Source: a virus
Direction: 5' to 3' (one strand)
DNA length: 64,000 bases
IMG/VR virus record: IMGVR_UViG_3300029314_000002
Span: 5,460-69,459 of that record
In this document: in pieces, positions 11,811-38,534 of the stretch
Layout of the letters: each line of letters opens with the position of its first letter
Numbering within the stretch: the stretch's first letter is position 1
The notes under the pieces: generated by a model
The model's input: the letters and a program-made list of their open reading frames with translations, nothing else
Told to the model about the DNA's origin: nothing
The model's database searches: none
Translations under genes and position numbers: made by a program

Positions 11811-11848
11811 TTAGCACCTAACGGTCAGGGTGTCATCCATAGCGGGCA

Positions 11849-12100: not shown

Positions 12101-12442
12101 TGTTACCTCTGAATGATTTGTTAGCCCGCTCCACTGCCGCCAGTGACCAGTGCCGAACCTGGTGTCGTCTGGTCTGCATTGCTGCAGGTCTCAGTTTCGC
12201 TCCAGCGTCGCGTGAAGAGGAGCGGGCTAACGGCTATGTTCGGCCGCCGCGTCGACTGTGGGCGGTCGGCGGCTTGCCAGAACCAGGACATGGGGTGCGG
12301 ACACCCGACGCACTGGGAATACTCCACACGCCGTACCTGACGGCGTGTGGCTTGACGTTGCCGCTTTCGTCCAAGTCTGTTGTGTCGCAAGTCTCTTTGC
12401 ACCATGAACATTCCATCTATCACCTCCGCCCAACGGATATGT

Positions 12443-12646
12443 TCAGCCGCTCGCCGGTTGCGCCGTGACACTCGCCGCGGCTGACGTTGGCGAGTCGGCT
12501 GAAAGTGGGGCTAGATGGCCTGGGCATTCTTGCCACTTATCATGTAGGCGTTGGGCGTATGCCAGCGCAGCGCCAAAATAGTACCCGTTGCAAAGCTGGC
12601 ATTTGCTGTCTACCCACTCATCCTTTGGTCCTCTGACTATATCCAC
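12443..12646 (-). CDS. Small hypothetical protein
   Basis: 67-aa ORF preceded by the 23-bp repeat at 12655..12677. Confidence 0.35.
   Translation of the reverse strand: MDIVRGPKDEWVDSKCQLCNGYYFGAALAYAQRLHDKWQECPGHLAPLSADSPTSAAASVTAQPASG
12481..12503. repeat. 23-bp direct repeat, copy 1
   Basis: CTGACGTTGGCGAGTCGGCTGAA, near-identical to 12655..12677. Confidence 0.7.
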
Positions 12647-12654
12647 GGTGTCCC

Positions 12655-12677
12655 CTGACGTTGGCGAGTCGGCTGGA
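12655..12677. repeat. 23-bp direct repeat, copy 2
   Basis: CTGACGTTGGCGAGTCGGCTGGA, located just 5' of the minus-strand start at 12646. Confidence 0.7.
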
Positions 12678-12685
12678 AACCGTTG

Positions 12686-12898
12686 TTAGACGGACGCAAA
12701 CAGGCGAGCGACCCGCTCGTCCATCGTTGGCTCGCGCAGCGCACGCTGCGTTGATCGGCGTTCCGGTGCGACCTCGAATCCCTGCGGACAATCCTCCGCT
12801 CCGTAGTTGCCGCATTCAGCGCAGCGTGGAGGCTTGCGCTGTTCCAGGCATTCAGAGATCAGGCGGTAACGACCTGCCGTGGTTAATGTGCTCGTCAT
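12686..12898 (-). CDS. Small Cys-containing hypothetical protein
   Basis: 70-aa ORF; first gene after the promoter at 13069, with a ~160-nt leader. Confidence 0.4.
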   Translation of the reverse strand: MTSTLTTAGRYRLISECLEQRKPPRCAECGNYGAEDCPQGFEVAPERRSTQRALREPTMDERVARLFASV

Positions 12899-14812: not shown

Positions 14813-14889
14813 CTTCGGCGCAGCAGGCCGAAGGCGGTGAGTATGCCGGCGACGATGAACCAAAATGCGTTTTCGGTTGAGAAGATCAT
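14806..14889 (-). CDS. Possible 27-aa membrane peptide
   Basis: MIFSTENAFWFIVAGILTAFGLLRRRQ; ATG overlaps the methylase stop as ATGA. Confidence 0.3.
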   Translation of the reverse strand: MIFSTENAFWFIVAGILTAFGLLRRRQ

Positions 14890-17090
14890 GATGCGATGCC
14901 TTTCAGTTCGGGTTGGGCGGCGCGCTGGGCGATGCGGTCGGTGGCGAGTTGGCAGTAGGTGGGGGATTGTTCGATGAGGGTGATACGGCACTGGTCGCCC
15001 TGGGGGAGGGAGAGGGCGGCGACGGCGGTTGTGCCGCTGCCGGCGAATGGGTCCAGGATGTGGCAGCCGGGCCAGCCGTAGAGACGAATGAGGTTTTCGG
15101 CGAGTTTGAGGGGGAAGGGGGCGGGGTGGCCGATGCGGGTGGCGGATTCGGGGGCGATCTGCCAGTGATCCTGGGTGAGCTGCATGAAGATGCCTTCGGT
15201 TTGCAGCCAGGGGCTGACGAGGGCGCCGGGGTTGTTGGTGGCGGGGACGAGGATGCTGCGCGGCATGGGGGGTTCGCCGGCACGGCTTGCGATGATGATG
15301 GCTTCGCAGGTGTCGCGCAGGACGGGGTTGGTGGGGCGGCCCCACGATCCCCAGGCGGTGGAGTTGCCGGATGTGCCTTTGTCCCAGATGATCTGGCCTT
15401 CGATTTGGAGGCCGGCGGAGTAGAGTTGGGCGTAGATGCGGGGGGTGACGGGTACCCAGGGGGAGCGGCCCATGCCGAAGGGGACGTTGACGCAGATGCG
15501 GCCGCCGGGGGCGAGGATGGCGATGCAGGCGGCCCAGACGGTTTCGAGGAGTTGGTCGTAGTCGAATTGGTCGAGGGCGTCGTTGTGACCGTCGTAGGCG
15601 ATGACGCCGGTGTTGTAGGGTGGGGAGGTGATGACTAAATTGACGGGGGAGGTGATGCCGGCGATGGCTGTGCGCGCGTCGGCGCAGATGATGTTGATGT
15701 TGTGGGCGGATACGGGCGTCTGGAGATCGGGAACCTGGGGGGTGGCGGCCTGCAGTTCTTGCAGGAGGGCCTGGACGGCGAGCAGGCGCTCGGTGGCGGT
15801 GGATTGGGGGATGAAGCGGCTGGCGCTGAGGGCGCCGAAGTCCCGGATTTGGGCGGGGGTGTTGCGCGCGATGATCCCCTGCAGCAGTTGGATGGGGTTG
15901 CCGCCGCTGTAGGTGAAGGAGAAGTGGAGCCAGTTCTTGACGGCGCTGATGAGTTGGGCGAGCCGTTCTGGCGTCGGTGCGGTGGGTTCTGTGAGTGCTG
16001 TGCGCGCTTGGCGGGAGACTTCGGCTTGGTTGTCTATGAATGATTGGACGGCTTCGGCGGCCTGTTCCGGGGAGATGCGCAGGTTGCGGGTTTTGCCGGC
16101 GCTGATGAGGTAGTCGCGCATCCAGGCACGCTCGGTGGATGCGATGTCGGCGGTTTGGTTGATGTGTTCGAGGAGGGCGCGGAGGGCGGTTGGGGTGGCG
16201 TCGTGCAGTTCTTGGTCTGGTTCAGAGGTTGTAGCCCGGGTGTGGCCGATGTGTTCCGATTGCACCGCCTGGCCGATGGCGGCCGTGTTCATGGTGGCAA
16301 CGGCGCCGGACTTGGTGATATAAGTGCGCTCGTCAGAATTCTCACTGGCAACGTTGCCAGTGAGATCGCTGCGGACCCTGCTGACAAACGTATGTGAGAC
16401 GGCGCAACGTTGGGAAATCTCCCGATCTGACCACTTCACCCACTCAGGATCCCTCAGGATGCGCTCGACCGCCCGCCGCTTATCGGCGTTGGTGCGCCGG
16501 AGGCCGTGCCTGGCATTGGCGCCGGCAGAGTAGAGGATCGCCTCCCGCTGCGTGCCGGCGATCACGGTTGCGTTGATTTGTGTGCGGCCGGCGGTGAGCG
16601 CCGCGTTGACCCGATGGAAGCCATCCACCAGCCAGTAGTCGTGCCCGTCGTAGAACACCTCCACGGCCGGGAATTTTGCGCCGGCCGCCATCGCCTCGGC
16701 GTACTCGGCCAACGTTTCGTTGTCGAGGGCGGCGCGGGGTTGGGTGCCGCCGTCGCGGCGGATGAGCTTGAGGGGGAGTTTTTCTTCATGGGGGGAGGCG
16801 GGAGTTGCCGCGGTCGTGGCGTTGATGAGGGCGGCGAGGCCGTTGTCGGGAGTGGTCTGGCGGCCGTTTTGTTTTCCGTTTGGCGCGATTGGGGTTGGGG
16901 TTTGGGTGACCAGGTCGCGGGTGCTGAGGATGAGGGTTGTGCCGTCAATGTGCCAGCACGGCTCGGTGAATGGGTCGTCGGGGCTGATTTCGTAGATGTC
17001 TATGTTTGCGCGCGCGACGGTGTGGCCGGCGGTTGTCCAGCGCCGTCGCGCGCTTTCGATCTGGTCGAAGGGAATGGGGGTGTAGCTCAT
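14886..17090 (-). CDS. ParB/Srx-like domain fused to beta-class N6A/N4C DNA methyltransferase
   Basis: Start MSYTPIPF (17090, ATGA with upstream stop); ParB-like LIRRDGGTQPRA...YWLVDGFHR; motif IV SPPYN then motif I LDPFAGSGTT. Confidence 0.9.
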   Translation of the reverse strand: MSYTPIPFDQIESARRRWTTAGHTVARANIDIYEISPDDPFTEPCWHIDGTTLILSTRDLVTQTPTPIAPNGKQNGRQTTPDNGLAALINATTAATPASPHEEKLPLKLIRRDGGTQPRAALDNETLAEYAEAMAAGAKFPAVEVFYDGHDYWLVDGFHRVNAALTAGRTQINATVIAGTQREAILYSAGANARHGLRRTNADKRRAVERILRDPEWVKWSDREISQRCAVSHTFVSRVRSDLTGNVASENSDERTYITKSGAVATMNTAAIGQAVQSEHIGHTRATTSEPDQELHDATPTALRALLEHINQTADIASTERAWMRDYLISAGKTRNLRISPEQAAEAVQSFIDNQAEVSRQARTALTEPTAPTPERLAQLISAVKNWLHFSFTYSGGNPIQLLQGIIARNTPAQIRDFGALSASRFIPQSTATERLLAVQALLQELQAATPQVPDLQTPVSAHNINIICADARTAIAGITSPVNLVITSPPYNTGVIAYDGHNDALDQFDYDQLLETVWAACIAILAPGGRICVNVPFGMGRSPWVPVTPRIYAQLYSAGLQIEGQIIWDKGTSGNSTAWGSWGRPTNPVLRDTCEAIIIASRAGEPPMPRSILVPATNNPGALVSPWLQTEGIFMQLTQDHWQIAPESATRIGHPAPFPLKLAENLIRLYGWPGCHILDPFAGSGTTAVAALSLPQGDQCRITLIEQSPTYCQLATDRIAQRAAQPELKGIAS
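16340..16365. repeat. Perfect palindrome CTCACTGGCAACGTTGCCAGTGAG, copy 1 (inside the ParB-methylase gene)
   Basis: 24-bp core identical to 40379..40402; flanking T/A extends it to 26 bp here. Confidence 0.9.
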
Positions 17091-17302
17091 GGGAGTGCTC
17101 CGATGCCAGCGAGGACGACGGCGAGGAGGATGACGGCGATGATGATAGCGAGAATCCAGCGCGCTGAGGGGCGGATGTCGGCGTCGTCGAGGCCGGCGCG
17201 GTAGCCGGAGTTCCATTCCTGGGTGGGGGGGGATTCGATCCGGGGAGTGGTGGTGTCTTGGGTGGCGGCGCGGTAGCCGGAGTTCCAGTCTTGTGTTGCC
17301 AT
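17087..17302 (-). CDS. Small C-terminally anchored membrane protein with internal WNSGYRA repeat
   Basis: Start MATQDWNSGYRA (AAGGAG RBS); TM WILAIIIAVILLAVVLAGIG. Confidence 0.5.
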   Translation of the reverse strand: MATQDWNSGYRAATQDTTTPRIESPPTQEWNSGYRAGLDDADIRPSARWILAIIIAVILLAVVLAGIGALP

Positions 17303-26063: not shown

Positions 26064-26735
26064 TTAGAAGCCAAGTCCGCGCTCTTTGAGGGAGACCCAT
26101 CCGGGGTTGCCGATGATGATGTGATCGAGCACGTCTATGTCGAGCAGTTTGCCGGCTTCGACGATGGCGCGGGTGACGTTTACGTCTTCTGGGGAGGGCG
26201 AGGGGTCGCCAGAGGGGTGGTTGTGGGCGACGATGATGCAGGCGGCGTTGCGGCGGATGGCTGGGCGGAAGACTTCGGCAATGCGCACCCCCGCTGAGTT
26301 GACGCTGCCGATGGAGATGGTTTCGGTGCCGATGTGGCCGTTGCGGGTGTTGAGCAGGATGACGACGAGGTGCTCCTTTTCGTAGGTGCGCATGTAGAGG
26401 AGATGGTTGGCGGCATCCGCAGGGCTGAGAAGGGAGTCGCTGCGGTTGGGGGAGGTGAGGACGGCTCGCCGACCAAGCTCCAGGGCGGCTTTGATGCGCG
26501 CGGCGCGCGTGGGGCCGATGTCGGGGATGGCGGTGAGTTCTTCGAGGGTCATGTTGATGAGACCGGATAGGTGCCCGGCTCGGGCGATGAGGGCGCTGCT
26601 GGTGTCGAGGGTGGCACAGCCCAGGATGATTTGGAGTAATTCGCCGGCGTTGAGGGCGCCAGTGCCGAATGTTTCGGCGCGGTAGATGGGCCTTTCGGTG
26701 GCTGGCAGGTCACGCACACAGAGCTTGGCGGTCAT
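26064..26735 (-). CDS. radC: RadC-like JAB/MPN domain protein
   Basis: HNHPSGDPSPSPED JAMM motif; N-terminal helix-hairpin-helix region. Confidence 0.9.
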   Translation of the reverse strand: MTAKLCVRDLPATERPIYRAETFGTGALNAGELLQIILGCATLDTSSALIARAGHLSGLINMTLEELTAIPDIGPTRAARIKAALELGRRAVLTSPNRSDSLLSPADAANHLLYMRTYEKEHLVVILLNTRNGHIGTETISIGSVNSAGVRIAEVFRPAIRRNAACIIVAHNHPSGDPSPSPEDVNVTRAIVEAGKLLDIDVLDHIIIGNPGWVSLKERGLGF

Positions 26736-26780
26736 GAGAGTGATTCCTTTCTGACTGGGTTCGATTGAACTGACGGTCTC

Positions 26781-26809
26781 ACTCTCTCACAGGCAGATGG
26801 GGGTGTCAA
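26781..26809 (-). promoter_or_regulatory. Cassette promoter A: TTGACA-N17(TGa)-GAGAGT with conserved leader
   Basis: One of four near-identical promoter/leader units (see 28284, 30464, 31612). Confidence 0.5.
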
Positions 26810-26822
26810 TCTCTTGACGATT

Positions 26823-27098
26823 CGAGTTTATCCCTGAGTTTTGGAAGGTTGACGGGAGTGGGTTTGGGATACGGCAGAGGTGGGGCGCCGATGTGGCGCG
26901 CGGATGCGCGAAAGAATGCTTGCCCAGGAACTGCTGAGAGGCGCTATGAGCGTCTGCGGCATAGGACGGTATGGTGTGAGGGCGATGATGCCTGGGAGCG
27001 CCCAGGAGGTAGCCGGTTGGCGGAGGAATGACGATGGGGTGAAGGTGAGAGGTTTCAGTGAACGCGGGCAGATGCGCCTGGGGGCATCTGTCGGGGAA
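26823..27098. repeat. ~270-nt conserved non-coding element, copy A
   Basis: Alignable to 30506..30765 at roughly three quarters identity by eye, with a 1-nt indel that breaks every frame. Confidence 0.75.
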
Positions 27099-27100
27099 GA

Positions 27101-27134
27101 CACAGGCGGCGACATGCAGATGTCGCCGCCTGTG
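27101..27134. terminator. Hairpin ACAGGCGGCGACAT-N-ATGTCGCCGCCTGT (copy A)
   Basis: 15-bp stem; the T-rich run (TTGTTT) lies on the plus strand; near-identical to 30890..30922. Confidence 0.6.
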
Positions 27135-27158
27135 TTGTTTGGGTAGAGAGGGGCAGGT

Positions 27159-27782
27159 TCAATCGAAAAGGGTGGGGTTTTCGGGGAATTCAGGGAACAA
27201 TTCGGGGGACGCGGCAGATTTGGATGTGCGCTTGCCCCAGGTGATTTCGATGAAGTCGTTCTGCCAGTAGTGGGCTGCGCGATCGGTGTAGGGATCGGGG
27301 GTTTCGGAGGGCGGGTTGAGTTGACAACCGATTTCGAGCCAGTGCTGGACGCCACGGGCCATTGAACGGCCGCGGCCGGTGTGTTTGTCCAGGGCGTAGT
27401 CGGGGACTTCAAGGCGCTTGCCGTGCAGCCGGTCCTGGTGAACGGCGCATTGGAAGTGGTCGGCCAGCCTGGATTTGGGGGATCGGCACATGACGAGGAT
27501 GGTGTTGGCGAGGATGAGCCGGGCGCTGGAGTCTTTGCCCTCGCTGCGCATCTCGAAGTAGAGGGTGCGCTGGTTGGGGACAAGGGCGAGCAGGCCGGGG
27601 TTGGCGATGCCGATGTCTTCGTTGGCGATGATGATGAGCCGGCGCCAAAGGTACGTTTCGAACTTGGGGATGAGTTCGAGCGACCAGTACATGGCAGCTT
27701 CTTCGTTGGCACGGCGAATCTCTTTTTGCAGGGACGAGATTACGTCGAACAGGTTGTAGTGGTTTTGGGTGACGATGTTCAT
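27159..27782 (-). CDS. Stand-alone MgsA_C/RarA-lid-like helical protein (no AAA+ core)
   Basis: YNLFDVISSLQKEIRRANEEAAMYWSLEL...RRLIIIANEDIGIANP. Confidence 0.65.
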   Translation of the reverse strand: MNIVTQNHYNLFDVISSLQKEIRRANEEAAMYWSLELIPKFETYLWRRLIIIANEDIGIANPGLLALVPNQRTLYFEMRSEGKDSSARLILANTILVMCRSPKSRLADHFQCAVHQDRLHGKRLEVPDYALDKHTGRGRSMARGVQHWLEIGCQLNPPSETPDPYTDRAAHYWQNDFIEITWGKRTSKSAASPELFPEFPENPTLFD

Positions 27783-27804
27783 GTGTGATCTCCTTTGGTG
27801 CGAA

Positions 27805-27833
27805 AGTTTCGCACGCCTGTTCTAATATGTCAA
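27805..27833 (-). promoter_or_regulatory. Promoter TTGACA-N17(TGc)-GAAACT
   Basis: The -35 hexamer overlaps the stop of the upstream gene; palindrome GTGCGAAAgTTTCGCAC in the leader. Confidence 0.45.
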
Positions 27834-28237
27834 TCCTGATCCGGGAGCATGAGGGTGATGACGGGTTCGGCGTTGTCGCCGGGGCCAACGACGAGCTTGA
27901 AGGTGAAGATTTCACGGTCTTCGATGCCGGTGATTTTGACCTGGAATAGCACTGTGGCGGGATCGGGGCGGGCGATGATGTAGCGCAGGCTCATCCACAT
28001 GATGTCGTTCCAAATGCCGGTCAAGTCGTTGTGGAGAAGCGGGTTGTCTGCGGCTTGCTCGATGATGAAGAAGACTTCGGCGGTCATGGCGATGGGGTAT
28101 TTGTAGGTTTGCCGGCTGATCTGTCCGAGTGGGCCGGTGGAGGCATCTACGAGAACGCCGTCGGCGATGGCTTGTGCTCTGCTGTAGCTGAAGATGAGAT
28201 CGGCGTCTGTCCAGGGGGCGGTGGGCGGGATGTTCAT
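27830..28237 (-). CDS. Hypothetical protein of a plasmid/ICE-associated family (name not recalled)
   Basis: Start MNIPPTAPW; IFSYSRAQAIADGVLVD ... GPGDNAEPVITLMLPDQD. Confidence 0.6.
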   Translation of the reverse strand: MNIPPTAPWTDADLIFSYSRAQAIADGVLVDASTGPLGQISRQTYKYPIAMTAEVFFIIEQAADNPLLHNDLTGIWNDIMWMSLRYIIARPDPATVLFQVKITGIEDREIFTFKLVVGPGDNAEPVITLMLPDQD

Positions 28238-28283
28238 GATTTTGCTGTCCTTTCTGGCTAGATTTGATTGAACTGACAGGTTG

Positions 28284-28312
28284 ACTCTCGCACGAGAGGC
28301 ATGAGAAGTCAA
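28284..28312 (-). promoter_or_regulatory. Cassette promoter D: TTGACT-N17(TGc)-GAGAGT with leader
   Basis: Shares AGAGATTGAC, GAGAGT, GTCAGTTCAATC and CAGAAAGGA blocks. Confidence 0.5.
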
Positions 28313-28405
28313 TCTCTTTGGTGGGCGAGTTTTCACGCAGGTTTCCACCAGTTTTTGTCGCCGACCGGCCCTGGCTGGGGGCAGGGCCGGCCGCGTTGGA
28401 ATGGG

Positions 28406-29416
28406 TCAGGGGCGGAGTTGGCTGCCGGAGCGGAGGGGGCTGGGGCCGTGCGGCGGGTAGGCAAAGCCGGCTTCGAGTATGGCCTGGTAGAAGCTGCCGA
28501 TGATAGGGGCGATGGCCTGCAGGTGCGGGTCAGGGTTGGTGAGCAGCTCATGGATGTAGGTTTCGATGCTGAGGCCGATTGAGCCTACGCGGCGCATTTT
28601 GGGGATGGCGCCATCCACGGGGAAAACGGGCTGCTGCCAGGCGGTGCGGCTGGCGGCATGGTCGTCGAGGGTTTGGGTGATGAAGAAGTCAAGGTTGAAC
28701 ATTGTGTCCTGGGCTTGTTCGGCGCGCAGGCGGTTGCAGATGGCGCGGAATTCGCGCAGGAGGGGGCGCTCGGAGGTGTTCAGGTAACGGAAGGCGATGA
28801 ATTGGCGGTTGCGGTCGAGATCGGCCATGCACTCGCCGAATTGGACGCCGACGATGTTCTGTTGGACAAGGCGTTGTACGTCGGGGATGAGGTGCAAGAG
28901 GCTGAGGCGGGCCTGGATGCGTTTGGGGGTGACTTTGGCGGTGCGGGCGAGATGGGCGATTGTCCAGTCGAATTGGTCGAGGCGCTTTTGGTAGGCGCGG
29001 GCTTCGTCAATAGGGTCTATGTCAACGCGATGGACGTTTTCGATGAGCATGATGGCGCTGGCTTGCTGATCGGTGAGGTCGCGGATGATGGCGGGGACGG
29101 TGGGCCAGGCGAGCAGGCCGATGGCGCGCCAGCGGCGTTCGCCGGCGACGATCTGGTAGACGGCGGGCCAGGTGGCGCCGGCGCAGTCGCAGTATTCGGT
29201 GGGGCGGTCGCCTGTGCAGGTGATTTGGCGGCAGCGTGGGCAGTGGTAGAGGGGGCGGACGGTGATGGGTTGGATGAGGCCTTCGGCTGCGATGCTGTCG
29301 GCGAGGGTCTGGAGGTCTTCGGGGCGGAAGACGGTGCGGTCGTTGTCGCCAGTGCTGATCTGGTGGTAGGGGATGGGGGTGATGGTCGGCTGGACTGTGT
29401 GCGAATCGGCAGGCAT
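28406..29416 (-). CDS. ParB/Srx-family protein with zinc-ribbon insert
   Basis: GLIQPITVRP ... IVAGERRWRA ... MLIENVHR; CPRCRQITC...CDC. Confidence 0.85.
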   Translation of the reverse strand: MPADSHTVQPTITPIPYHQISTGDNDRTVFRPEDLQTLADSIAAEGLIQPITVRPLYHCPRCRQITCTGDRPTEYCDCAGATWPAVYQIVAGERRWRAIGLLAWPTVPAIIRDLTDQQASAIMLIENVHRVDIDPIDEARAYQKRLDQFDWTIAHLARTAKVTPKRIQARLSLLHLIPDVQRLVQQNIVGVQFGECMADLDRNRQFIAFRYLNTSERPLLREFRAICNRLRAEQAQDTMFNLDFFITQTLDDHAASRTAWQQPVFPVDGAIPKMRRVGSIGLSIETYIHELLTNPDPHLQAIAPIIGSFYQAILEAGFAYPPHGPSPLRSGSQLRP

Positions 29417-29488
29417 GGTCAGGTCCTTTCATGGTGAACGATGGGGCCAGCAGCGGGGGGCTGCTGGCGACTGAGAATGAATCGGGGA

Positions 29489-30418
29489 TCAATGCGGACG
29501 ATTGGCGAACACGCTGATGCAGCGTTGCTGGAGTTCGGTAACTTTTTCGCCGTAGGCGATCCAGGTTGCTTTGGGCCAGCCGTAGGGGATTCGGGCGCTG
29601 CCCGGTTTTCGCTGCGTCTGGCCGAGGGCTTGTAGAAGCTCGTCGCCGGCCTCTTGCCATTCTGGGCAGCACAGCTGAAAATCGAATTTGGGTGATTGGG
29701 GAACCTGGGCGGCACGGTGGCAGAGGCCGAGGGCGGTGGTGATGTAGCCGATGGCTTTGATGCTGTTCAGGGTGGCGGCGAAGATGCGAAACTCGATTGT
29801 CTGTTTGCTGTTGAACAGGTTGCACAAGTTGAGCGTGTGGTAGCGATCTTCGATTTTGCGCTCTTTGACCAGGTCAAGATCGTCGGTTGTGGCGATGAGC
29901 ATGTTTTCGTCACGGGTTTTGACGGTTTTGCAGTAGTCGTTACGCATGCGCTCAGGAGAGTTGATGGTGGCGTAGATGCCGAATTCGTGATGGCTGACCA
30001 GGTTGAGGATGCGATGAAGGAAACGCACCATGACCGGCGATGTTTCCGGGGATTCGCCCAGCAGGGAGGCGATGCCTACGTGTACGTGGAAGCCGCAGGT
30101 GCTGTTGATTTTGGCTTCTGCGGCGTTGAGCAAGTCGAAGATTTGGACGATTTCTGAGATGCCCTGACTGCCGTGCAACACCGGGGAGACGATTTCGAGC
30201 GGCGTGTAGCCGGCGGGACAGTTGCGCAGGGAACTATCGGCCTGGGTTTCCCACAGCGGCGGGAAGGGGGCGGGAAGGGCGTACCCGTGATGGTAGCGAC
30301 CAATGCGGATGGCGTTCTCCCACAGATAGGAGTTGGGGAGGAAACACTCGATCTCTACGCCGAAGGTGATTTGCTCGGCGTCAACGGTGATGAAGCGGGA
30401 CTTGTTATTGGCGGCCAT
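29489..30418 (-). CDS. Amidoligase_2-type (GS-like carboxylate-amine ligase) enzyme
   Basis: FGVEIE, LEIVSP, CGFHVHVG, TIEFRIF; start MAANNK (30418) fits the cassette RBS spacing. Confidence 0.75.
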   Translation of the reverse strand: MAANNKSRFITVDAEQITFGVEIECFLPNSYLWENAIRIGRYHHGYALPAPFPPLWETQADSSLRNCPAGYTPLEIVSPVLHGSQGISEIVQIFDLLNAAEAKINSTCGFHVHVGIASLLGESPETSPVMVRFLHRILNLVSHHEFGIYATINSPERMRNDYCKTVKTRDENMLIATTDDLDLVKERKIEDRYHTLNLCNLFNSKQTIEFRIFAATLNSIKAIGYITTALGLCHRAAQVPQSPKFDFQLCCPEWQEAGDELLQALGQTQRKPGSARIPYGWPKATWIAYGEKVTELQQRCISVFANRPH

Positions 30419-30463
30419 GGGTGACATTCCTTTCTGACTGGGTTCGATTGAACTGACGGTCTC

Positions 30464-30492
30464 ACTCTCTCACCGACAAATCGGGGGGTCAA
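30464..30492 (-). promoter_or_regulatory. Cassette promoter B: TTGACC-N17(TGa)-GAGAGT with leader
   Basis: Leader identical to copy A over about 45 nt. Confidence 0.5.
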
Positions 30493-30505
30493 TCTCTGTG
30501 CGGCA

Positions 30506-30765
30506 CGAGTTTATCCCTGAGTTTTGGAAGGTTGGCGAGGTTGATTTTGGGATACGGCAGAGGTGGGGCGCCGATGTGGCGCGCGGGCGCTCTGAAAGTG
30601 CTCACCCAGGAACTGCCGGAAGGCGCCATGCGCGTGCTGGGCATAGGACAGTATGGCGTGAGGGCGATGGCACTTGAGAGCACCCATGAGCCGCCGGTTG
30701 GCGTTGGGGATGAAGGGAGATGTGCTTGGTGAACGCGTGTGGATGCACCTGGGGGCATTTGTGAG
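30506..30765. repeat. ~270-nt conserved non-coding element, copy B
   Basis: See 26823..27098. Confidence 0.75.
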
Positions 30766-30829
30766 GGCGTTGCGGTGAATTGGTTTGGGGGTTTGGTGGC
30801 TTAGATGTATAATTGGCGGGAGCCTTCTT

Positions 30830-30870
30830 GTCCTTTCTGGCTGTGATTGAACTGACATTCTCCATGACTA
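30830..30870 (-). repeat. Orphan leader remnant (copy E) without ORF
   Basis: GTCAGTTCAATCacagcCAGAAAGGAca, followed by no start codon. Confidence 0.6.
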
Positions 30871-30889
30871 GGGACGATGATAAGAGGCG

Positions 30890-30927
30890 ACAGGCGGCGA
30901 CATGTCACATGTCGCCGCCTGTTTTTG
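30890..30927. terminator. Hairpin ACAGGCGGCGACAT-N-ATGTCGCCGCCTGT (copy B)
   Basis: 14-bp stem followed on the plus strand by TTTTTGTTT. Confidence 0.65.
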
Positions 30928-30933
30928 TTTGGT

Positions 30934-31563
30934 TCAGGAAAGGGCGAGGAAGGAGGCGAAAAGGGCGGTGGATGTCGGGGACTGCAAGATTTCAGGGTGC
31001 CATTGTACTGAGATGACGGGCAGGCGGGGGTGTTCGATGGATTCGACGATGCCGCCGGCTGTGGCGGCGATGCGCCAGCCGGCGGGGACATCGGCGACGG
31101 CCTGGTGGTGCAATGAGTTGACCTGACAGGTGCGCGTCTTGAGGATGCGGCTGAGCCGGCTGCGAGAGACGATGACGATGTCGTGGATGTTCGAGCGATG
31201 TTCGATGCCAGTATCCTGCCAGATGTCCTGGTGGAGGGTGCCGCCGGCGACGGCGCAAATCATCTGGTGCCCGCGACAGATGCCCATGATTGGTTTGGCG
31301 TCAGCCAGGGCAAGGGTGGCGAGGCCGTATTCGAGCGGATCGCGGCGGGATGCGACGGGGTGGGCGAAGCGCACGCGGGTATTGTAGTAGGATGGGTGAA
31401 TGTCGGCGCCGCCGGGGAGGAGGATGTGCGAGGCCTTTTCGTACATTTTGTACGGGTTTTCGTTGGGGGCGAGGATGTGGACGCTGGCGCCGAGGGTGCT
31501 GAGTCTCCAGCAGATGTGGTCCGTGAAGGAGCCTGGGGTGACGAGGACATGCGGTTTGACCAT
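30934..31563 (-). CDS. Class-I glutamine amidotransferase (peptidase C26 / PuuD-like)
   Basis: GICRGHQ nucleophile elbow; VQWHPE. Confidence 0.85.
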   Translation of the reverse strand: MVKPHVLVTPGSFTDHICWRLSTLGASVHILAPNENPYKMYEKASHILLPGGADIHPSYYNTRVRFAHPVASRRDPLEYGLATLALADAKPIMGICRGHQMICAVAGGTLHQDIWQDTGIEHRSNIHDIVIVSRSRLSRILKTRTCQVNSLHHQAVADVPAGWRIAATAGGIVESIEHPRLPVISVQWHPEILQSPTSTALFASFLALS

Positions 31564-31611
31564 GAGAATGATTCCTTTCTGATCTGTGAATTCGGTTGAA
31601 CTGACGGTCTC

Positions 31612-31640
31612 ACTCTCTCACAGGCCAATCGAGGTGTCAA
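31612..31640 (-). promoter_or_regulatory. Cassette promoter C: TTGACA-N17(TGa)-GAGAGT with leader
   Basis: Same architecture as copies A and B. Confidence 0.5.
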
Positions 31641-31724
31641 TCTCTGGGCGGTACGAGTTTATCCCTGAGTTTTTTGGGACTGATTTGGGATACGGGAAAC
31701 GAGTTTGGTCGACGCGCGTGCGCG

Positions 31725-31772
31725 AAAAAACCAGAAGCCTCGTGAATCGGTGTTCACGAGGCTTCTGGTTTT
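31725..31772. terminator. Bidirectional terminator
   Basis: AAAAAA-CCAGAAGCCTCGTGAA-tcggtg-TTCACGAGGCTTCTGG-TTTT. Confidence 0.8.
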
Positions 31773-31795
31773 GTGGGGGGGCGATGGGCGCCCGT

Positions 31796-32338
31796 TTATG
31801 CGGCGCTGGGCGCTGCAAGGATGGTGTTGTTGGGGCCAACGCTAAGGCCGGCCGGGGTGAGCAGGATGTCGAGCAGGGTCTGGTGATCTTGGGTGGACGT
31901 TCCGATCTGCTCTGCTATGCCCTGGCCGATCATTTGGTAGGATGTGACGGCGCCCCCTCGGGCCAGTTCGATGAGGACGTTTTGTCCGGTATATGTGGTG
32001 TACATGACGTTTCTCCTTATTTTTCTTCTTGTCTTGCCACCTGACCGCCCAGGTGGGCAATCGCCGCTAGCAGGCAGGCCAGCCGGCGTTGATTCAATTC
32101 TGTGCCCACGAAGGGCTTGCCTGCCCGGTAGGCTGCCAGCCCTACCAGGCCGCGGCCCATGCAGCGGCGCCGGGCTGGGCGTGATTTCAACCGCCAGCAT
32201 GGCCGCGATGCGATCCATCACGTCCATGCGGACGGCGATCTGCGCCAGGGCCACGTCGAGCGGGACGCCCAGGCGGCGAGCCAGGTTGTCGAGCCGGGTG
32301 GCCGTATCTGCGGATAGGGTGAGCGTGCGGTCGTTCAT
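31796..32338 (-). CDS. RHH-type N-terminus + P/G/R-rich linker + 69-aa C-terminal module (which may also be made separately from ATG 32005)
   Basis: RTLTLSADTATRLDNLARRLGVPLDVALAQIAV; in-frame internal AAGGAG-N6-ATG at 32005. Confidence 0.5.
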   Translation of the reverse strand: MNDRTLTLSADTATRLDNLARRLGVPLDVALAQIAVRMDVMDRIAAMLAVEITPSPAPLHGPRPGRAGSLPGRQALRGHRIESTPAGLPASGDCPPGRSGGKTRRKIRRNVMYTTYTGQNVLIELARGGAVTSYQMIGQGIAEQIGTSTQDHQTLLDILLTPAGLSVGPNNTILAAPSAA

Positions 32339-33345: not shown

Positions 33346-33415
33346 CTCGCCGGCCGGCTGGCCATAAAAGTATTATAGCTGTCAAATTGATTGAGTGCGT
33401 GTGAGCGTTGGTGGT

Positions 33416-33448
33416 TTGCAAATTATAGAACATGTGTTCTATAATTTG
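33416..33448 (+). promoter_or_regulatory. Promoter TTGCAA-N18-TATAAT overlapped by a 30-bp perfect palindromic operator
   Basis: CAAATTATAGAACA-TG-TGTTCTATAATTTG. Confidence 0.65.
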
Positions 33449-33495
33449 GCATTGACGAATGCTTGTTACGTAGTTGTATGAGATCAGGAGGGTGT

Positions 33496-34209
33496 ATGTC
33501 GGTTGATTTTGGGGGTATGCGCGTGGTGAAGGCGAATGATCTGCTGCCGGATGAGCATAATGCAAATCTGGGGACGGATCGGGGGCGCGGGATGTTGGAT
33601 AAGTCGCTGCGCGATTTGCGGGCAGGGCGTTCGATCCTGGTGGATCGGAATGGGAAGGTGATTGCCGGCAATAAGACGCTGCAGAGCGCAGCCGGGGTGG
33701 GGATTGAGGAGATCATCATTGTGCCAACGGACGGGAGCCGGCTGGTGGCTGTGCAGCGCACCGACCTGGATTTGGACACAGACGCCGATGCTCGCGCCCT
33801 GGCCTATGCCGATAATCGCGTGGCCGAGCTTGATCTGGTGTGGGACATCGAGCAGTTGATGCGCGACATCGAGAGCGGCGTGCAGCTCGATGGCTACTTC
33901 TACGATGATGAGGTGGCCCGGCTTATCGAGGGCATCATCGAGGACGAGAAGGGGGATAAAGCCAAAAAGGCGGGCGGTGACGCGGCGCCGGCGATGGCGT
34001 TGCAGCCGTTCGAGCATTACGACTATGTGATGCTGGTGTTCAGGAATCAGATGGACTGGACGAAGGCCGTGTCGTTCCTGGGCATTGACCGGGCGGCGTT
34101 CGATATTGGGAAGGGCCGGCGCAAGGTTGGGATGTGCCGGGTGATTGATGGCGCGAGGGCGATAGATAAATGGGAATCAGGGTCGTCATTCCAAGTAAGA
34201 GCCGAGTAG
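33496..34209 (+). CDS. ParB-like nuclease-domain protein
   Basis: Start MSVDFGG (GGAGGG RBS); LLPDEHNANLGTDRGRGMLDKSLRDLRAGRSILVDRNGKVIAGNKTLQSA. Confidence 0.7.
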   Translation: MSVDFGGMRVVKANDLLPDEHNANLGTDRGRGMLDKSLRDLRAGRSILVDRNGKVIAGNKTLQSAAGVGIEEIIIVPTDGSRLVAVQRTDLDLDTDADARALAYADNRVAELDLVWDIEQLMRDIESGVQLDGYFYDDEVARLIEGIIEDEKGDKAKKAGGDAAPAMALQPFEHYDYVMLVFRNQMDWTKAVSFLGIDRAAFDIGKGRRKVGMCRVIDGARAIDKWESGSSFQVRAE

Positions 34210-34901
34210 GGGATTGCCGCACCGCGCTTGCGCTGTTTCCTGGGGCCACGGTTGTGGTCAATGAGGAGCAGGCGCAGCAGTATGAGGTGCTGGGGGCGCC
34301 GCTGCTGGCGCACCCCAAAGACTTGTGGGGGATTGGGCCGCTCAAGAATTGGATTCTGGATCATGTGGATGATGAGTGTGTGTTCATCGTGGACGATGAT
34401 GTGTACCAGGTGCGCTCGCCGGTTGGTTCTCCGACCAGGTCACATGTGATTCGTGATCCAGAGGCGATTCGGCAGTTTGTGGAGAATACGGCGGAGATTG
34501 CGCGGGGGATTGGGGCGCCTGTGTTTGGTTTCGATCAGACGGGCGGGGATACGCGTAAGTTCAGGCCGCAGGACCCGATGAGGTTTTGCGGGTGGGTGGG
34601 TGCGGCGATGGGGATCGTTGGGCGGGAGATTCGTTTCGATCCTGAGTTGCGGATTCGGGCGGATATTGATTTTTGTCTGACGGCGCAGTTGCGCCGGCGG
34701 GTGATTGTGATGGACGGGCGATTTTCGTTCATTCACAGGAAGCGGTGGAGTTATCCGGGAGGAAATAGCCTGAGCCGCAGCGGGAAGCGGAATCAGGCGG
34801 AGTTGGCTTATCTGCAGCGAAAGTGGGGGGAATGGATTACGGTGCAGAATTCGGCGACGACGACGCTGATTGTGGTGAATGTGGAAAGGAGATGGCGATG
34901 A
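34170..34901 (+). CDS. GT-A-like glycosyltransferase candidate
   Basis: VVIPSKSR ... ECVFIVDDDV (DxD-like); family not verified. Confidence 0.5.
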   Translation: MGIRVVIPSKSRVGDCRTALALFPGATVVVNEEQAQQYEVLGAPLLAHPKDLWGIGPLKNWILDHVDDECVFIVDDDVYQVRSPVGSPTRSHVIRDPEAIRQFVENTAEIARGIGAPVFGFDQTGGDTRKFRPQDPMRFCGWVGAAMGIVGREIRFDPELRIRADIDFCLTAQLRRRVIVMDGRFSFIHRKRWSYPGGNSLSRSGKRNQAELAYLQRKWGEWITVQNSATTTLIVVNVERRWR

Positions 34902-36166
34902 CGCGCGTGTGCGTGATTGGGCTTGGGTATGTGGGGACGGTGGTGGCGGGGTGTCTGGCGGCAATAGGACATCGGGTGATGGGGGTGGAGAAGGATCGGC
35001 AGCGAGCGGATGATTTGCGGGAGGGCCGGCTGGCGGCGGCAGAACCGGGGTTGGGTGATTTGTGGGCGAGGGCGCTGGCGGGCGGGGCGCTGACGGTGGA
35101 GGATTCAATTGGGTATGCGGTGGAGCGGTGTGATGTGGTGATGTTGTGTGTGGGGACGCCTGCGGTGGCGGGCGGTGGGTTCGATTATGGGGATCTGCGG
35201 GCGGGATGCGAGGAGGTTGGGAGGGCGTTGGCGAATCAGGCGGAACGGCGCTTGGTGGTGGTGCGGAGTACGGTGACGCCGGGAACAACGCGCGGGGTGG
35301 TGGTGCCGGCAGTCGAGCGGGCTGCAGGGAAACGCGCGGGCGATGGGTTTGGGGTGATTTATAATCCTGAGTTTCTGCGTGAAGGGTATGCGGTGGGGGA
35401 TTTTATGCGGCCTCCGTTCGTGGTGATTGGGGGGGACGATGCGCAGGATCGGGCACAGTTGCGGGAGTTGTATGTTGGGGTTGATGGGCCGCTGGTGGAG
35501 ACGGCGGTGGAGACGGCGGAGCTGGTGAAGTTGGTGAGTAATGTGTGGCACGCGTTGAAGGTGACTTTTGCGAATGAGATGGGGCGGATGAGTCGCTCGC
35601 TGGGGGTGAACGGGCAGGAGTTGATGGAGATTTTTTGCCGTGATGAGCGGTTGAATATCAGTGCTGCATACCTGCGCCCTGGTTTTGCGTTTGGGGGGCC
35701 GTGTTTGCCGAAGGATGTGCGGGCGTTGATGGGGTTGGGGGCGCAGCGCGGGCTGATGTTGCCATTGTTGGAGGCGGTGCTGCCGAGTAACGATGTGCAT
35801 GTGGAGCGCGCGGCGCAGGTGGTGAAGCAGACGCGCGCGGAGCGGATTGGGGTGATTGGTTTGGCGCACAATCAGCATACGGGTGATCTGCGGGATAGTC
35901 CGGCGCTGCGGTTGATTGGGTGCTTGACGAATGGGGAGCTGCGCCGGCGGGTGCGGGCGTTCGATGAGTCGGTGCCGGTGGCGCCGGTGAGAGACGAGGC
36001 GCAGGTGGAGGTTGTGGGGTGTATAGAGGATGTGGTGCGGTGGTGCGAGGTTTTGGTGGTGACGACGAAGGTTGATTATGGGCAATTGCGGTTGCGGCCT
36101 GGGCTGTTGGTGGTTGATTTGACGCGCGGTGATGAGGGTGCGTTTTTACAAATGGGGGTAGCGTAG
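34898..36166 (+). CDS. ugd: UDP-glucose/GDP-mannose 6-dehydrogenase family enzyme
   Basis: VCVIGLGYVGTVVAGCLA Rossmann; GFAFGGPCLPKD catalytic Cys; ATGA overlap with the upstream stop. Confidence 0.9.
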   Translation: MTRVCVIGLGYVGTVVAGCLAAIGHRVMGVEKDRQRADDLREGRLAAAEPGLGDLWARALAGGALTVEDSIGYAVERCDVVMLCVGTPAVAGGGFDYGDLRAGCEEVGRALANQAERRLVVVRSTVTPGTTRGVVVPAVERAAGKRAGDGFGVIYNPEFLREGYAVGDFMRPPFVVIGGDDAQDRAQLRELYVGVDGPLVETAVETAELVKLVSNVWHALKVTFANEMGRMSRSLGVNGQELMEIFCRDERLNISAAYLRPGFAFGGPCLPKDVRALMGLGAQRGLMLPLLEAVLPSNDVHVERAAQVVKQTRAERIGVIGLAHNQHTGDLRDSPALRLIGCLTNGELRRRVRAFDESVPVAPVRDEAQVEVVGCIEDVVRWCEVLVVTTKVDYGQLRLRPGLLVVDLTRGDEGAFLQMGVA

Positions 36167-36277: not shown

Positions 36278-36988
36278 ATGGACGACGCCAACGCGTGGGA
36301 TCGGTTGGATGGGGAGTCGAGTTTGTGGTTCGTGCGGTTCGACGCGTACCGGTTGTTGGGGCCGCGGCGAACGCTGCAGCGGGCGGTGCGCGCGGAGCGG
36401 GCGCAGGAGAAGGAGAGTTCGCGCGCGCGGCGCGTGCCCGGCTCCTGGGGACGTGCGGCGCAGCAGTGGCGATGGGAGGAGCGGGCGCAGGCGTGGGACG
36501 AGGAGGTGCGCCGGCGGGATGAGGAGCGATGGGAGTTGCGGCGCCGACGGTTGCGCGAGAGGGAGTGGAAGTCGGCGCAGGATTTGGTGGGTAGGGCGAA
36601 GCAGATGTTGGCGTGGCCGTTGGCGCGCCAGGAAAAGAAAGATGAGGATGGCCGTCAAACGACGGTGGTGATGCCGGCGCGCTGGACGATGCGCGATGCG
36701 GCATCTTTTTTTGAGACGGGGTCAAAGCTGGCGCGGCTGGCGGCCGACATGGCGACCAGTAAGGAGAAACACGAGGTCGGCGGGTCAATTGAGATAAAGC
36801 GGCCCTTCGATCTGGAGAAACTGAGCGATGACGAGCTTGCTGCCCTCCTTGCCAACCTCCGGGCGGTTGCAGATGGCGCTGGCGGCGCAGGCGCACCTGG
36901 TGCAGCGCCGGCGGGCGACCGGGGGCGACGATCTGCTGACGTGGACGATGAAGTACCGGATCATGCTGTCGCCGAAGACGCCGTTTGA
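36278..36988 (+). CDS. Terminase small subunit candidate
   Basis: Position upstream of and overlapping terL; WFVRFDAYRLLGPRRTLQRA HTH-like; charged coiled region. Confidence 0.5.
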   Translation: MDDANAWDRLDGESSLWFVRFDAYRLLGPRRTLQRAVRAERAQEKESSRARRVPGSWGRAAQQWRWEERAQAWDEEVRRRDEERWELRRRRLREREWKSAQDLVGRAKQMLAWPLARQEKKDEDGRQTTVVMPARWTMRDAASFFETGSKLARLAADMATSKEKHEVGGSIEIKRPFDLEKLSDDELAALLANLRAVADGAGGAGAPGAAPAGDRGRRSADVDDEVPDHAVAEDAV

Positions 36989-38534
36989 CCTGACCAATCA
37001 CGCGTATCTGCAGGGTCTGTATGAATGCGACGCCCGGCAGATGGTGGTGAAGAAGGCCGGCCAGGTGGGCGCCAGCGAGTACCTGGTGAGTTATGCGCTG
37101 CACGCGGCGGACGCGCGGCGCATGGATATTTTGTACGTGATGCCCACAGATGACGATGTGTCGGATTTCAGCCGCACGCGGTTTGGGCCGGCGTTGGAGG
37201 CGAGCACGTACCTGGCGGAGATCGTGGTGGATGGCTCGGCGGATGCGCGGCGCGGCGCGGACCGGGTGACGTTGAAGCGCATTCACAATAGTTGGCTGTA
37301 CTTCCGTGGCGGTCGCGTGAAGCCGGACGGTAACGCGCCGCAGTTGAAGTCGTTGCCGGCCGACGGTATCATCCTCGATGAGTACGATGAGATTGACGTG
37401 CGAGCGCCGGAGCTGGCGCGCAAGCGCCTGGGGCACAGCGCACACAAGGAGGAGCGTGATGTCTCCACGCCAACCTACACGGGCGTGGGGATTGATCTGG
37501 AATGGCGCAATACAGATCAACGCCTGTGGCACCTGCGCTGTGACCACTGCGGGACGTGGCAGACGCTCACGATCCAGCAGGTGGTGATCGAGCAGGATGA
37601 ACTGGGCCGGCCGGTGGACTGGTGGGGCCGCGCGGAGGGACGCGCGTTTGTGGCGTGCCGGCGCTGCCAGCGGGAGATGAACCGCCTGGCGGTCGGGCAG
37701 TGGGTGCCCACCTTCCCAGGGCGTGACGTGGCGGGCTTTCATCTGTCGAAGCTGTTCAGCGCGCAGGCCAACCTGATGAGTACGATCAGGGCGCTACAGA
37801 CAGCCGACGAGTCGAAGCGTAAGGAAGCCTTCAACCAGGACTTGGGGGAGCCATACACGCCGCAGGGGGGCGGGCTGACTGACCAGGTGCTGGATGCGTG
37901 CCGGCGTGAGTATGCGCCAGGAGCGCTGGCTAAGGAGCGCACGGTGATGGGTGTGGACGTGGGGCGGGTGCTGCACTACGTGATTAGAGGGCCGGCGGAT
38001 GCGACCACGGGCGAGCGACCGCTGCGGCGGGCCGGCGAGGCGGTGTCGTTCGATGAGGTGGGGCGGTTGATTCGGGCGTTCAATGTGGGCGTCTGCGTGA
38101 TGGATGCCTTGCCGGAGACGCACGCCGCGCGTAAATTGCAAGGCGAGGTGAACGCAGGGCGGCGGGGCACGGTGTGGCTGGCATACTATTCCAGCTTCGA
38201 GGGCACGCGGCATGAGGACATCGGCCAGTGGAACGACAAAGAGGGCATTGTGACATTGGACAGGACGCGCGCGATGGATGAGATGATGGTGCGGTTCACT
38301 GATGGCAAAAACACGCTGCCGGCGACCATGCGCAGCAGCGTGGACTACTACGAGCATTTGAAGGCGTCAGTACGGGTGACTGAACGCAAACGCGACGGGA
38401 ACCTGGCCGCGCGTTACGTGGAAAGCGGGCCGGATCACTATGCTCATGCGGAGACCTACTGTGCTGCAGCCAGCCTGCGGCCGCGAGCGGTGGGTGTGCT
38501 GGCGCAGGGTACGGCGAAGGGGTGGGGGATTTGA
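36828..38534 (+). CDS. terL: Terminase large subunit, GpA (lambda) family
   Basis: KKAGQVGASE, IILDEYDE, CDHCG...CRRCQ zinc motif; exact start uncertain (36828, 36873 or 36948). Confidence 0.9.
   Translation: MTSLLPSLPTSGRLQMALAAQAHLVQRRRATGGDDLLTWTMKYRIMLSPKTPFDLTNHAYLQGLYECDARQMVVKKAGQVGASEYLVSYALHAADARRMDILYVMPTDDDVSDFSRTRFGPALEASTYLAEIVVDGSADARRGADRVTLKRIHNSWLYFRGGRVKPDGNAPQLKSLPADGIILDEYDEIDVRAPELARKRLGHSAHKEERDVSTPTYTGVGIDLEWRNTDQRLWHLRCDHCGTWQTLTIQQVVIEQDELGRPVDWWGRAEGRAFVACRRCQREMNRLAVGQWVPTFPGRDVAGFHLSKLFSAQANLMSTIRALQTADESKRKEAFNQDLGEPYTPQGGGLTDQVLDACRREYAPGALAKERTVMGVDVGRVLHYVIRGPADATTGERPLRRAGEAVSFDEVGRLIRAFNVGVCVMDALPETHAARKLQGEVNAGRRGTVWLAYYSSFEGTRHEDIGQWNDKEGIVTLDRTRAMDEMMVRFTDGKNTLPATMRSSVDYYEHLKASVRVTERKRDGNLAARYVESGPDHYAHAETYCAAASLRPRAVGVLAQGTAKGWGI

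Follow-up and report, generated by a model that had tools for sequence, protein, structure and literature searches.

Ligases of the Amidoligase_2 family (PF12224) are widespread on phages, plasmids and integrative elements together with a partner that cleaves glutamine or gamma-glutamyl compounds. In a computational study of 2009, Iyer, Abhiman, Burroughs and Aravind reportedly predicted such ligases on phages and plasmids beside either a GAT-like thiol peptidase or an AIG2 cyclotransferase, and are said to have put forward peptide tagging as their role. No experimentally assigned function for an Amidoligase_2 enzyme and its partner was found in the searchable literature since that prediction, which agrees with what an earlier note on this DNA had held. 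Here we describe one such pair, an Amidoligase_2 ligase and a class-I glutamine amidotransferase (GATase), encoded on a 64 000-nucleotide (nt) stretch of viral DNA (positions 5460 to 69 459 of IMG/VR record IMGVR_UViG_3300029314_000002); the whole stretch is referred to as the window. We propose that the pair is a two-enzyme phage accessory module that makes and hydrolyses a gamma-glutamyl amide and works with the adjacent ParB protein, a reading for which we consider the chances evenly balanced.

With the described PF12224 neighbourhoods the locus shares the ligase family and the logic of mutually exclusive partners (class-I GATase, class-II GATase or GGACT), but the subfamily found here adds linked ParB_N+HTH_ParB and RadC genes and a C-terminal GW extension, and the two enzyme genes here have another order and separate units. 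A ligase of the glutamine synthetase (GS) fold is likewise combined with a C26 class-I GATase-type hydrolase in the PuuA/PuuD (Escherichia coli), PauA/PauD-SpuA (Pseudomonas) and GmaS pathways. Compared with these, however, the ligase here is ∼150 amino acids (aa) shorter, matches no GS-family Pfam model and gives TM-scores of only ∼0.4, no pathway oxidoreductases are encoded nearby, and the pair is phage-borne and ParB-linked. Pupylation by PafA and Dop belongs to the same fold superfamily and also sets a ligase with an amide-cleaving partner at a linkage of the Glu gamma-carboxyl, whereas the ligase here is partnered by a thiol hydrolase that is unrelated to it and no paralogue, there is no Pup-like protein, and the TM-scores are 0.40–0.46. 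Finally, phage DNA hypermodification clusters (PMC8989533, PMC13229309, PMC12783734) have amidoligase/GATase matches and ParB in common with this locus, which in addition encodes TAGT and a second ParB-like protein, but the enzymes that define those clusters (5mYOX, hydroxymethylase, 5-HMUDK, AADT, CmoA/CmoX) were not found in the window. The CmoY ligase is an asparagine-synthetase-type, AMP-forming enzyme, whereas the ligase here is modelled with a GS fold.

The 312-aa ligase matched the Pfam Amidoligase_2 model with 78.3 bits (cut-off 22, E = 1.1e-21) and PHROG 2443, ‘amidoligase enzyme’ (1.2e-22). The motifs by which the earlier note had recognized it (FGVEIE, EIVSP, CGFHVHVG and TIEFRIF) are present and include the invariant residues of the family; residues E25, E27, E78, H114, H116, E148, R195, N200, E212 and R214 are invariant among 27 homologues, and the C-terminal extension of this subfamily carries its GW motif in conserved form. 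A sequence-profile search against the PDB returned chance matches only, and the fold was therefore taken from AlphaFold2 and Foldseek. The AlphaFold2 model, built on the 27 homologues, reached a pLDDT of 93.6 and a pTM of 0.93, and Foldseek placed it in the GS superfamily (E = 4e-5 to 2e-3, TM 0.37–0.48, identity 8–15%), with matches to gamma-glutamylcysteine ligase/GshF, glutamine synthetases, gamma-glutamylmethylamide synthetase (GmaS), YbdK and PafA/Dop. The Foldseek probability was ≥0.99 for glutamine synthetase, gamma-glutamylcysteine ligase, YbdK and PafA, and every relative at E ≤ 1e-3 was a GS-fold carboxylate-amine ligase (glutamine synthetase, gamma-glutamylcysteine ligase, GmaS, PafA and the YbdK homologue 1tt4). 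The ligase is thus confidently modelled with a fold of the glutamine-synthetase/gamma-glutamylcysteine-ligase type. Characterized GS-fold relatives phosphorylate the gamma-carboxylate of a glutamate, which is either free or the C-terminal residue of Pup, and then join it to an amine. Because the characterized members of the matched fold families activate this carboxylate, glutamate is proposed as the acid that the ligase would activate, an extrapolation over remote similarity.

The partner, a 209-aa protein that the earlier note had rightly taken for a C26/PuuD-like GATase, scored higher against Peptidase_C26 (PF07722; 131.3 bits) than against the Pfam GATase model (74.4 bits). Its catalytic triad is intact, with C96 in GICRGHQ and H189 and E191 in QWHPE, and is invariant in seven orthologues. 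The nearest solved relatives were Lin1909 (3fij, 3.6e-20), the 7d4r group of Pseudomonas, annotated as ‘probable glutamine amidotransferase’, and E. coli PuuD (6vtv, 5.7e-11). All of these outranked the GMP-synthase and anthranilate-synthase subunits, the top match 3fij being itself uncharacterized. On this ranking the protein is closest to gamma-glutamyl-amine hydrolases, and we infer that it is a hydrolase rather than an ammonia donor. None of the NCBIfam equivalog models was near its cut-off (PuuD, 50 bits against 266).

How such ligases are partnered was counted over 160 loci around Amidoligase_2 relatives, taken from viral and genome collections and reduced to 136 by dereplication, with partners counted up to 2.5 kb away. 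A class-II (N-terminal nucleophile) GATase was present at 63 loci, a GGACT/AIG2 gamma-glutamyl(amine) cyclotransferase at 36 and a class-I GATase at nine, the families being verified with Pfam. Exactly one partner type was found at 108 of the 136 loci and two types at none; in the window, the partner is the class-I GATase, 506 nt from the ligase. These counts reproduce, quantitatively, the neighbourhoods described for PF12224, relatives of which are encoded on at least 417 viral stretches. The three partner families are unrelated, and what they have in common is that they cleave the amide in glutamine or in gamma-glutamyl compounds. Since GGACT/AIG2 is not an ammonia donor, gamma-glutamyl make-and-break was weighted above glutamine-dependent amidation. 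The three alternative partners point to chemistry in which a gamma-glutamyl amide is made and broken, and the ‘build and trim’ proposal of the earlier note is the reading that has the best support from the predicted fold, the closest solved relatives and the partner displacement.

A total of 64 homologues of the ligase were found in the database, and five relatives with usable flanks (L001, L003, L004, L006 and L009; ligase identity 38–48%) were compared with the window. In all five, the GATase gene lies directly 3′ of the ligase gene, at a spacing between an overlap and a 9-nt gap. A ParB_N+HTH_ParB gene stands ∼40–130 nt downstream of the pair in L001, L003 and L004, overlaps the end of the GATase gene in L006, and lies ∼1 kb downstream in L009, with ArdC_N-like and RadC genes in between. 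The usual order in the relatives is ligase, GATase, ParB, in one operon; in the window and in a near-identical contig, L172, it is GATase, ligase, ParB. In a reverse search with the GATase as query, four viral contigs had a GATase of ≥48% identity, and each of them also encoded an amidoligase no more than 6 kb away. L006, an element with an integrase inside a 131-kb bacterial contig, shows that the ligase/GATase/ParB set is not limited to phages. In other genomes, the ligase and the GATase are a co-inherited functional pair.

The linked ParB gene and the DNA-modification context of the pair had been overlooked in the earlier reading. In the ParB protein (336 aa), the nucleotide-binding motifs GERRWRA (GERRxRA) and ENxxR are invariant. 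An insertion of ∼30 residues within ParB_N (∼residues 57–86) has four cysteines (CPRC...CDC) and looks like a zinc ribbon; it is common to L003 and L009 and missing in L001, L004 and L006. The score against the PRTRC system model (97.7 bits) was below the cut-off of 278.6. Clustering of the genes of the window and the five relatives showed that ParB and RadC are the sole further genes kept with the pair in all of them, and gave no conserved small partner gene. The conserved unit in this subfamily is therefore ligase, GATase and ParB with RadC nearby, and not ligase, GATase and a small protein. PADLOC returned no match for the ligase, the GATase, ParB or the 69-aa open reading frame (ORF) described below, so the module is not a known defence system.

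This 69-aa ORF had been described, together with the ligase and GATase genes, as one of three consecutive cassettes, and its product as a candidate substrate or carrier. The three ORFs do lie on the minus strand as described, and the impression of cassettes is borne out by a repeated putative promoter/leader unit 5′ of both the amidoligase and the GATase genes, but the 69-aa gene belongs to the upstream operon. Its ATG start stands behind TAAGGAGA, and its product, which ends in ...APSAA, has no Pfam, PHROG or PADLOC family. The expected co-occurrence of the three genes held for the ligase and GATase, found together in five of five relatives, and failed for the 69-aa gene, of which no homologue was detected in 169 Amidoligase_2-relative loci even in a search at E = 10 (best E-value 0.49). 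A search of 5.8 billion proteins found homologues on only two contigs, both belonging to this phage lineage (L172, where 65 of the 69 residues are identical, and L173, where the copy is truncated). An intrinsic-terminator-like hairpin and a promoter-like element lie between the 69-aa and GATase genes, and in L172 the 69-aa gene follows 5 nt after a methyltransferase-like gene, ahead of the GATase unit. Thus, the 69-aa gene is the last of the upstream operon and is lineage-restricted, and with no homologue in the 169 loci and a putative terminator and promoter separating it from the pair, its proposed role as substrate or carrier is not supported. L001, L003 and L004 have a different gene of 68–73 aa upstream of the ligase, which is missing in the window.

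The 69-aa frame is open upstream as far as 32338, forming a 180-aa ORF (31796–32338). A search with this ORF matched only proteins of ∼277 aa, over its first ∼58 residues, and it was rejected as a real gene: it is a chimera produced by a deletion of ∼7 kb relative to L172. Window positions 33363–32161 correspond to L172 positions 879–2054 (86.5% identity) and 32172–28545 to 9083–12716 (97.1%); from this collinearity, the window is without ∼7 kb that comprise the rest of the ∼277-aa gene, genes for an SNF2 helicase and a PAPS-reductase/DUF3440 protein, a number of small genes and the larger part of a 219-aa DPPW methyltransferase-like gene. A 57-codon remnant of the C-terminus of the methyltransferase is left at 32017–32190 (minus strand, in another frame), and the two L172 alignments overlap by ∼12 nt at the junction (∼32161–32172). 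The sibling L173, which was compared with window segments 27751–30983, 31087–31847 and 33932–35701, keeps these 7 kb and has deletions of its own. One has fused the 3′ end of the 69-aa gene to a GATase remnant, a further one has taken the amidoligase, ParB and DUF6573 genes, and a separate one has taken TAGT and the N-terminal two thirds of the dehydrogenase described below. The module is dispensable, and the comparison shows that accessory modules are gained and lost rapidly, possibly with a correlated loss of both modules in L173.

A conserved element of ∼90–130 nt is found 5′ of the RadC, DUF6573, amidoligase and GATase genes, where no chance matches were expected. It has the form GTATCCCAAA...GGGATAAACTCG...GATTGAC-N14-TG-N-GAGAGT-GAGACCGTCAGTTCAATC...CAGAAAGGA-N7-ATG, and would comprise, as we read it, a promoter with −35 and extended −10 elements, an upstream inverted repeat (TATCCC...GGGATA) and a common leader with a ribosome-binding site. 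The whole intergenic units are 423–506 nt long, that of the amidoligase (30428–30933) being 80% identical to that of RadC (26736–27158). The element also occurs 5′ of RadC, amidoligase, DUF6573 and 91-aa genes in L170 and L171, and in part 5′ of the ligase gene in L006. It was not called by a consensus promoter scanner, because the −10 hexamer GAGAGT fits the consensus at only three of six positions. An Rfam search of the whole window found no family, so that the repeated units are no known RNA. Since each enzyme gene has its own copy, the pair is probably co-regulated but not co-transcribed in this phage; in this lineage, L172 included, it appears to have been re-ordered and split into separately promoted units.

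Beyond the pair, on the opposite strand, an operon immediately 5′ of the terminase genes encodes a ParB-like protein (PADLOC match to an N-terminal ParB-like model), a TAGT glycosyltransferase (Pfam, 42.5 bits; cut-off 27.5) and a UDP-glucose dehydrogenase, the ATG of which overlaps the TAGT stop codon (ATGA, 34898–34901). These three genes and one for an MgsA_C-only protein are present in the window and in four of the five relatives partnered by a class-I GATase. The MgsA_C-only protein (C-terminal region of MgsA/RarA; 207 aa, window 27159–27782) accompanies the ParB-like/TAGT pair at 24 of 31 TAGT loci. The ParB-like/TAGT/MgsA_C trio also occurs with amidoligases of ∼28% identity that are partnered by GGACT or a class-II GATase. 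When the 31 loci were collected from TAGT, 29 had the ParB-like gene, 24 MgsA_C, seven the dehydrogenase and nine an amidoligase with a partner, and in a Bradyrhizobium prophage (L105) a sulfotransferase gene takes the position of the dehydrogenase. The TAGT/dehydrogenase operon suggests glycosylation of some acceptor with a uronic acid.

There is precedent for such an association with modified DNA. TAGT is the family of the T6-type enzyme for which addition of a second glucose to glucosyl-hydroxymethylcytosine DNA has been proposed (PMC13390438), and thymidine-hypermodification clusters contain amidoligase and GATase Pfam matches to which no role has been assigned (PMC8989533). ParB-dependent clusters of 5mYOX, a thymine dioxygenase, include GATases, and there ParB activates the DNA-modifying enzyme (PMC13229309). 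In the CmoX/CmoY system, a carboxyl group on phage DNA is the handle that an ATP-dependent ligase converts to an amide, and a glutamine-dependent variant is predicted (PMC12783734). When the locus was compared with the composition of hypermodification clusters, the accessory genes (ParB, ParB-like and TAGT) were present, and a handle-making enzyme and a kinase or transferase were not detected.

In the mechanism that we propose for the pair, the ligase would use ATP to form the acyl-phosphate of a carboxylate, most likely the gamma-carboxylate of glutamate by analogy with its fold, and would join this to an amine to give a gamma-glutamyl amide. The Cys-His-Glu GATase, closest to PuuD/SpuA, would later hydrolyse the amide. 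Glutamate would then be a transient or regulated appendage and not an end product. As acceptor we favour either a hypermodification of DNA or sugar that bears an amine, or a protein bound to DNA, for which ParB would be a candidate. A DNA-associated target is favoured because of the two ParB-like genes, RadC and the ParB-like/TAGT/UDP-glucose dehydrogenase operon, but within the model it is a tentative guess that may well prove wrong.

Several observations weigh against this proposal. The similarity of the ligase to GS-fold enzymes is remote (TM ≤ 0.48, 8–15% identity), so that the Glu donor is extrapolated; the substrate is a proposal, and the chemistry is read from sequence. A ligase and a hydrolase alone would make a futile cycle, and an extra intermediate step or regulation must be assumed. 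That ParB is adjacent may reflect no more than the synteny of early genes. Pfam detected no 5mYOX/TET, hydroxymethylase, 5-HMUDK kinase or amino-acid:DNA transferase (AADT) among ∼45 ORFs of the window, where divergent forms are possible, and the genes conserved between the window and its five relatives likewise included no 5mYOX/TET, hydroxymethylase, kinase or AADT. L006 has the pair but neither TAGT nor the dehydrogenase, and L195, L197 and others have TAGT but not the pair, so the link between the two is facultative. Moreover, shared phage ancestry inflates the co-occurrence counts of the pair and TAGT, and the link may in part reflect that ancestry.

One alternative is a PuuA/PuuD- or PauA/PauD-like system that gamma-glutamylates and later releases small host amines, for example putrescine or spermidine, and so tunes or detoxifies polyamines during infection. 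In its favour, free amines are the substrates of the nearest characterized relatives, which are GmaS and glutamine synthetase in the case of the ligase and PuuD and the 7d4r group in that of the GATase. The genes lie among early, individually promoted accessory genes, and in Pseudomonas aeruginosa the polyamine build-up that follows down-regulation of host catabolism inhibits phage replication (PMC9992862). However, no Puu-type oxidase or dehydrogenase was found among the scanned neighbouring ORFs, the ligase has only 312 aa and Amidoligase_2 as its sole Pfam match, and the PuuD equivalog score of the GATase is far below the cut-off. Free-amine metabolism would also leave the invariant ParB/RadC linkage and the recurrence of TAGT unexplained, and we consider it unlikely. 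Glutamine-dependent amidation, in which the GATase would be a glutaminase feeding ammonia to a ligase that amidates a carboxylate other than Glu, for example a glucuronate installed by TAGT from the UDP-glucuronate of the dehydrogenase, we consider decidedly unlikely. It would explain why class-I and class-II GATases, the two canonical ammonia donors, displace each other beside this ligase family, it would use a dehydrogenase that is translationally coupled to TAGT and recurs in four of the five relatives, and CmoX/CmoY provides the precedent. But the GATase scores better as a Peptidase_C26 and its closest solved relatives include PuuD and the 7d4r group and not synthase subunits, the third displacing partner (GGACT/AIG2) donates no ammonia, L006 has ligase, GATase and ParB in the absence of TAGT and dehydrogenase, and GGACT-partnered lineages have TAGT but no dehydrogenase within 10 kb. 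A combined version, with the pair as an optional tailoring step of DNA hypermodification, has a slim chance of being correct: the operon would add a glucuronic-acid-type sugar to phage DNA, and the ligase, guided by ParB and with the GATase supplying ammonia or trimming, would convert it to an amide or gamma-glutamyl derivative.

The presence of PafA and Dop among the structural relatives of the ligase suggests protein tagging, where the ligase would add Glu or a peptide to a protein, or join a protein Glu to lysine in the manner of PafA, the GATase would act as deamidase or de-tagger, and the 69-aa protein would be a tag, carrier or substrate. GGACT enzymes cleave gamma-glutamyl-epsilon-lysine, which fits this idea, and peptide tagging is what the 2009 study reportedly proposed. 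Yet no small protein is conserved beside the pair (the 68–73-aa gene of L001, L003 and L004 differs and is missing here), the 69-aa ORF, restricted to a single phage lineage, is separated from the pair at the level of transcription, and its C-terminus lacks the Gly-Gly-Gln/Glu of Pup-like proteins; we regard tagging as a poor prospect. A YbdK- or GCS2-type housekeeping identity of the ligase, with a biosynthetic GATase acquired by chance from the host, is effectively refuted; by the earlier note, an ordinary gamma-glutamylcysteine/YbdK-type ligase would have told against its reading. YbdK (1r8g, 1tt4) is among the remote structural matches, but only at a TM of 0.47, and the ligase has no NCBIfam family and no Pfam match, GCS2 included, besides Amidoligase_2 at E ≤ 0.01. 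The equivalog scores of the GATase are all far under the cut-offs, the genes form a phage accessory module, and the pair is kept with ParB in phage and integrative-element contexts and is deleted in the sibling phage L173. The make-and-hydrolyse module working with ParB is the reading that we carry forward, and the features on which it rests are collected in Table 1.

Table 1. Features of the amidoligase/GATase locus and its surroundings (window coordinates)
Feature	Position	Strand	Basis or detail
RadC (JAB-domain) gene, same promoter/leader	26064..26735	-	Pfam RadC, 136.9 bits
Repeated putative promoter/leader copies	26736-26880, 28236-28383, 30428-30563, 31564-31708; partial 30837-30862		5′ of four early genes
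ParB_N + HTH_ParB protein, 336 aa, conserved third module gene	28406..29416	-	Pfam and synteny
Amidoligase_2 enzyme, 312 aa, predicted GS-fold ATP-dependent carboxylate-amine ligase	29489..30427	-	Pfam, AlphaFold2, Foldseek
Intergenic unit 5′ of amidoligase	30428..30933	-	Hairpin 30889-30923, spacer, TTGACC-N14-TG-N-GAGAGT, leader with GAAAGGA ribosome-binding site
Class-I GATase/Peptidase_C26, 209 aa, candidate PuuD/SpuA-like gamma-glutamyl-amide hydrolase	30934..31563	-	Pfam PF07722, triad, PDB relatives
Putative promoter/leader copy 5′ of GATase	31564..31708	-	87-88% identity to 26736-26842 and 30426-30525
Intrinsic-terminator-like hairpin, 20-bp perfect stem then T-run, ends upstream operon	31727..31772	-	Inverted repeat
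69-aa ORF, orphan small gene, last of upstream (methyltransferase) operon, outside module	31796..32005	-	Synteny, homology searches
Facultative module: ParB-like 33463-34209, TAGT DNA-type glycosyltransferase 34170-34901, UDP-glucose 6-dehydrogenase (ATG 34898)	33463..36166	+	Pfam, PADLOC, sequence

The window has a base composition of ∼62% G+C and the content of a phage or prophage. A minus-strand gene arm (∼190 to 33345) includes genes for integrases, ParA, FtsK, a ParB-methyltransferase fusion, a Mom-like protein and Lar, and a plus-strand arm from 33463 onward includes the large terminase (36828–38534) and structural genes. No DNA-level relative of the window was found among 50 697 GenBank phages; the closest protein relatives are on metagenomic contigs, one of them labelled Anaerolineae, and the carrier of the module is probably a temperate phage lineage with hosts among the Chloroflexota/Anaerolineae. 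The minus strand of the left arm encodes the Lar restriction-alleviation protein (5967–6350), the Mom-like protein (6557–7462) and a 776-aa ParB-N6/N4 methyltransferase fusion (14886–17216), which marks a heavy investment of the phage in modifying DNA and countering restriction. Between the two arms, the divergent promoter region (33404–33463) contains a near-perfect palindrome, AAATTATAGAACA-TG-TGTTCTATAATTT, with TATAAT on each strand and a promoter-like TTGCAA-18-TATAAT on the plus strand; it is likely a shared operator of the early and late arms. The GC skew (G over C, plus strand) across window positions 1–64000 is above zero in almost every 2-kb bin irrespective of the coding strand, and the cumulative skew rises monotonically from ∼4 kb onward; the skew is a strand-wide compositional asymmetry and not a coding-strand effect.

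For the orphan Amidoligase_2 family, the locus provides new constraints, namely a ParB/RadC core, a counted displacement of partners and a facultative link to a TAGT sugar module. If the hypermodification reading were true, the product would be an acidic or amidated sugar base of a kind not yet described in any phage. The locus offers a tractable route to the function of a large orphan family and might, though the chance is small, also reveal a novel hypermodification of DNA.

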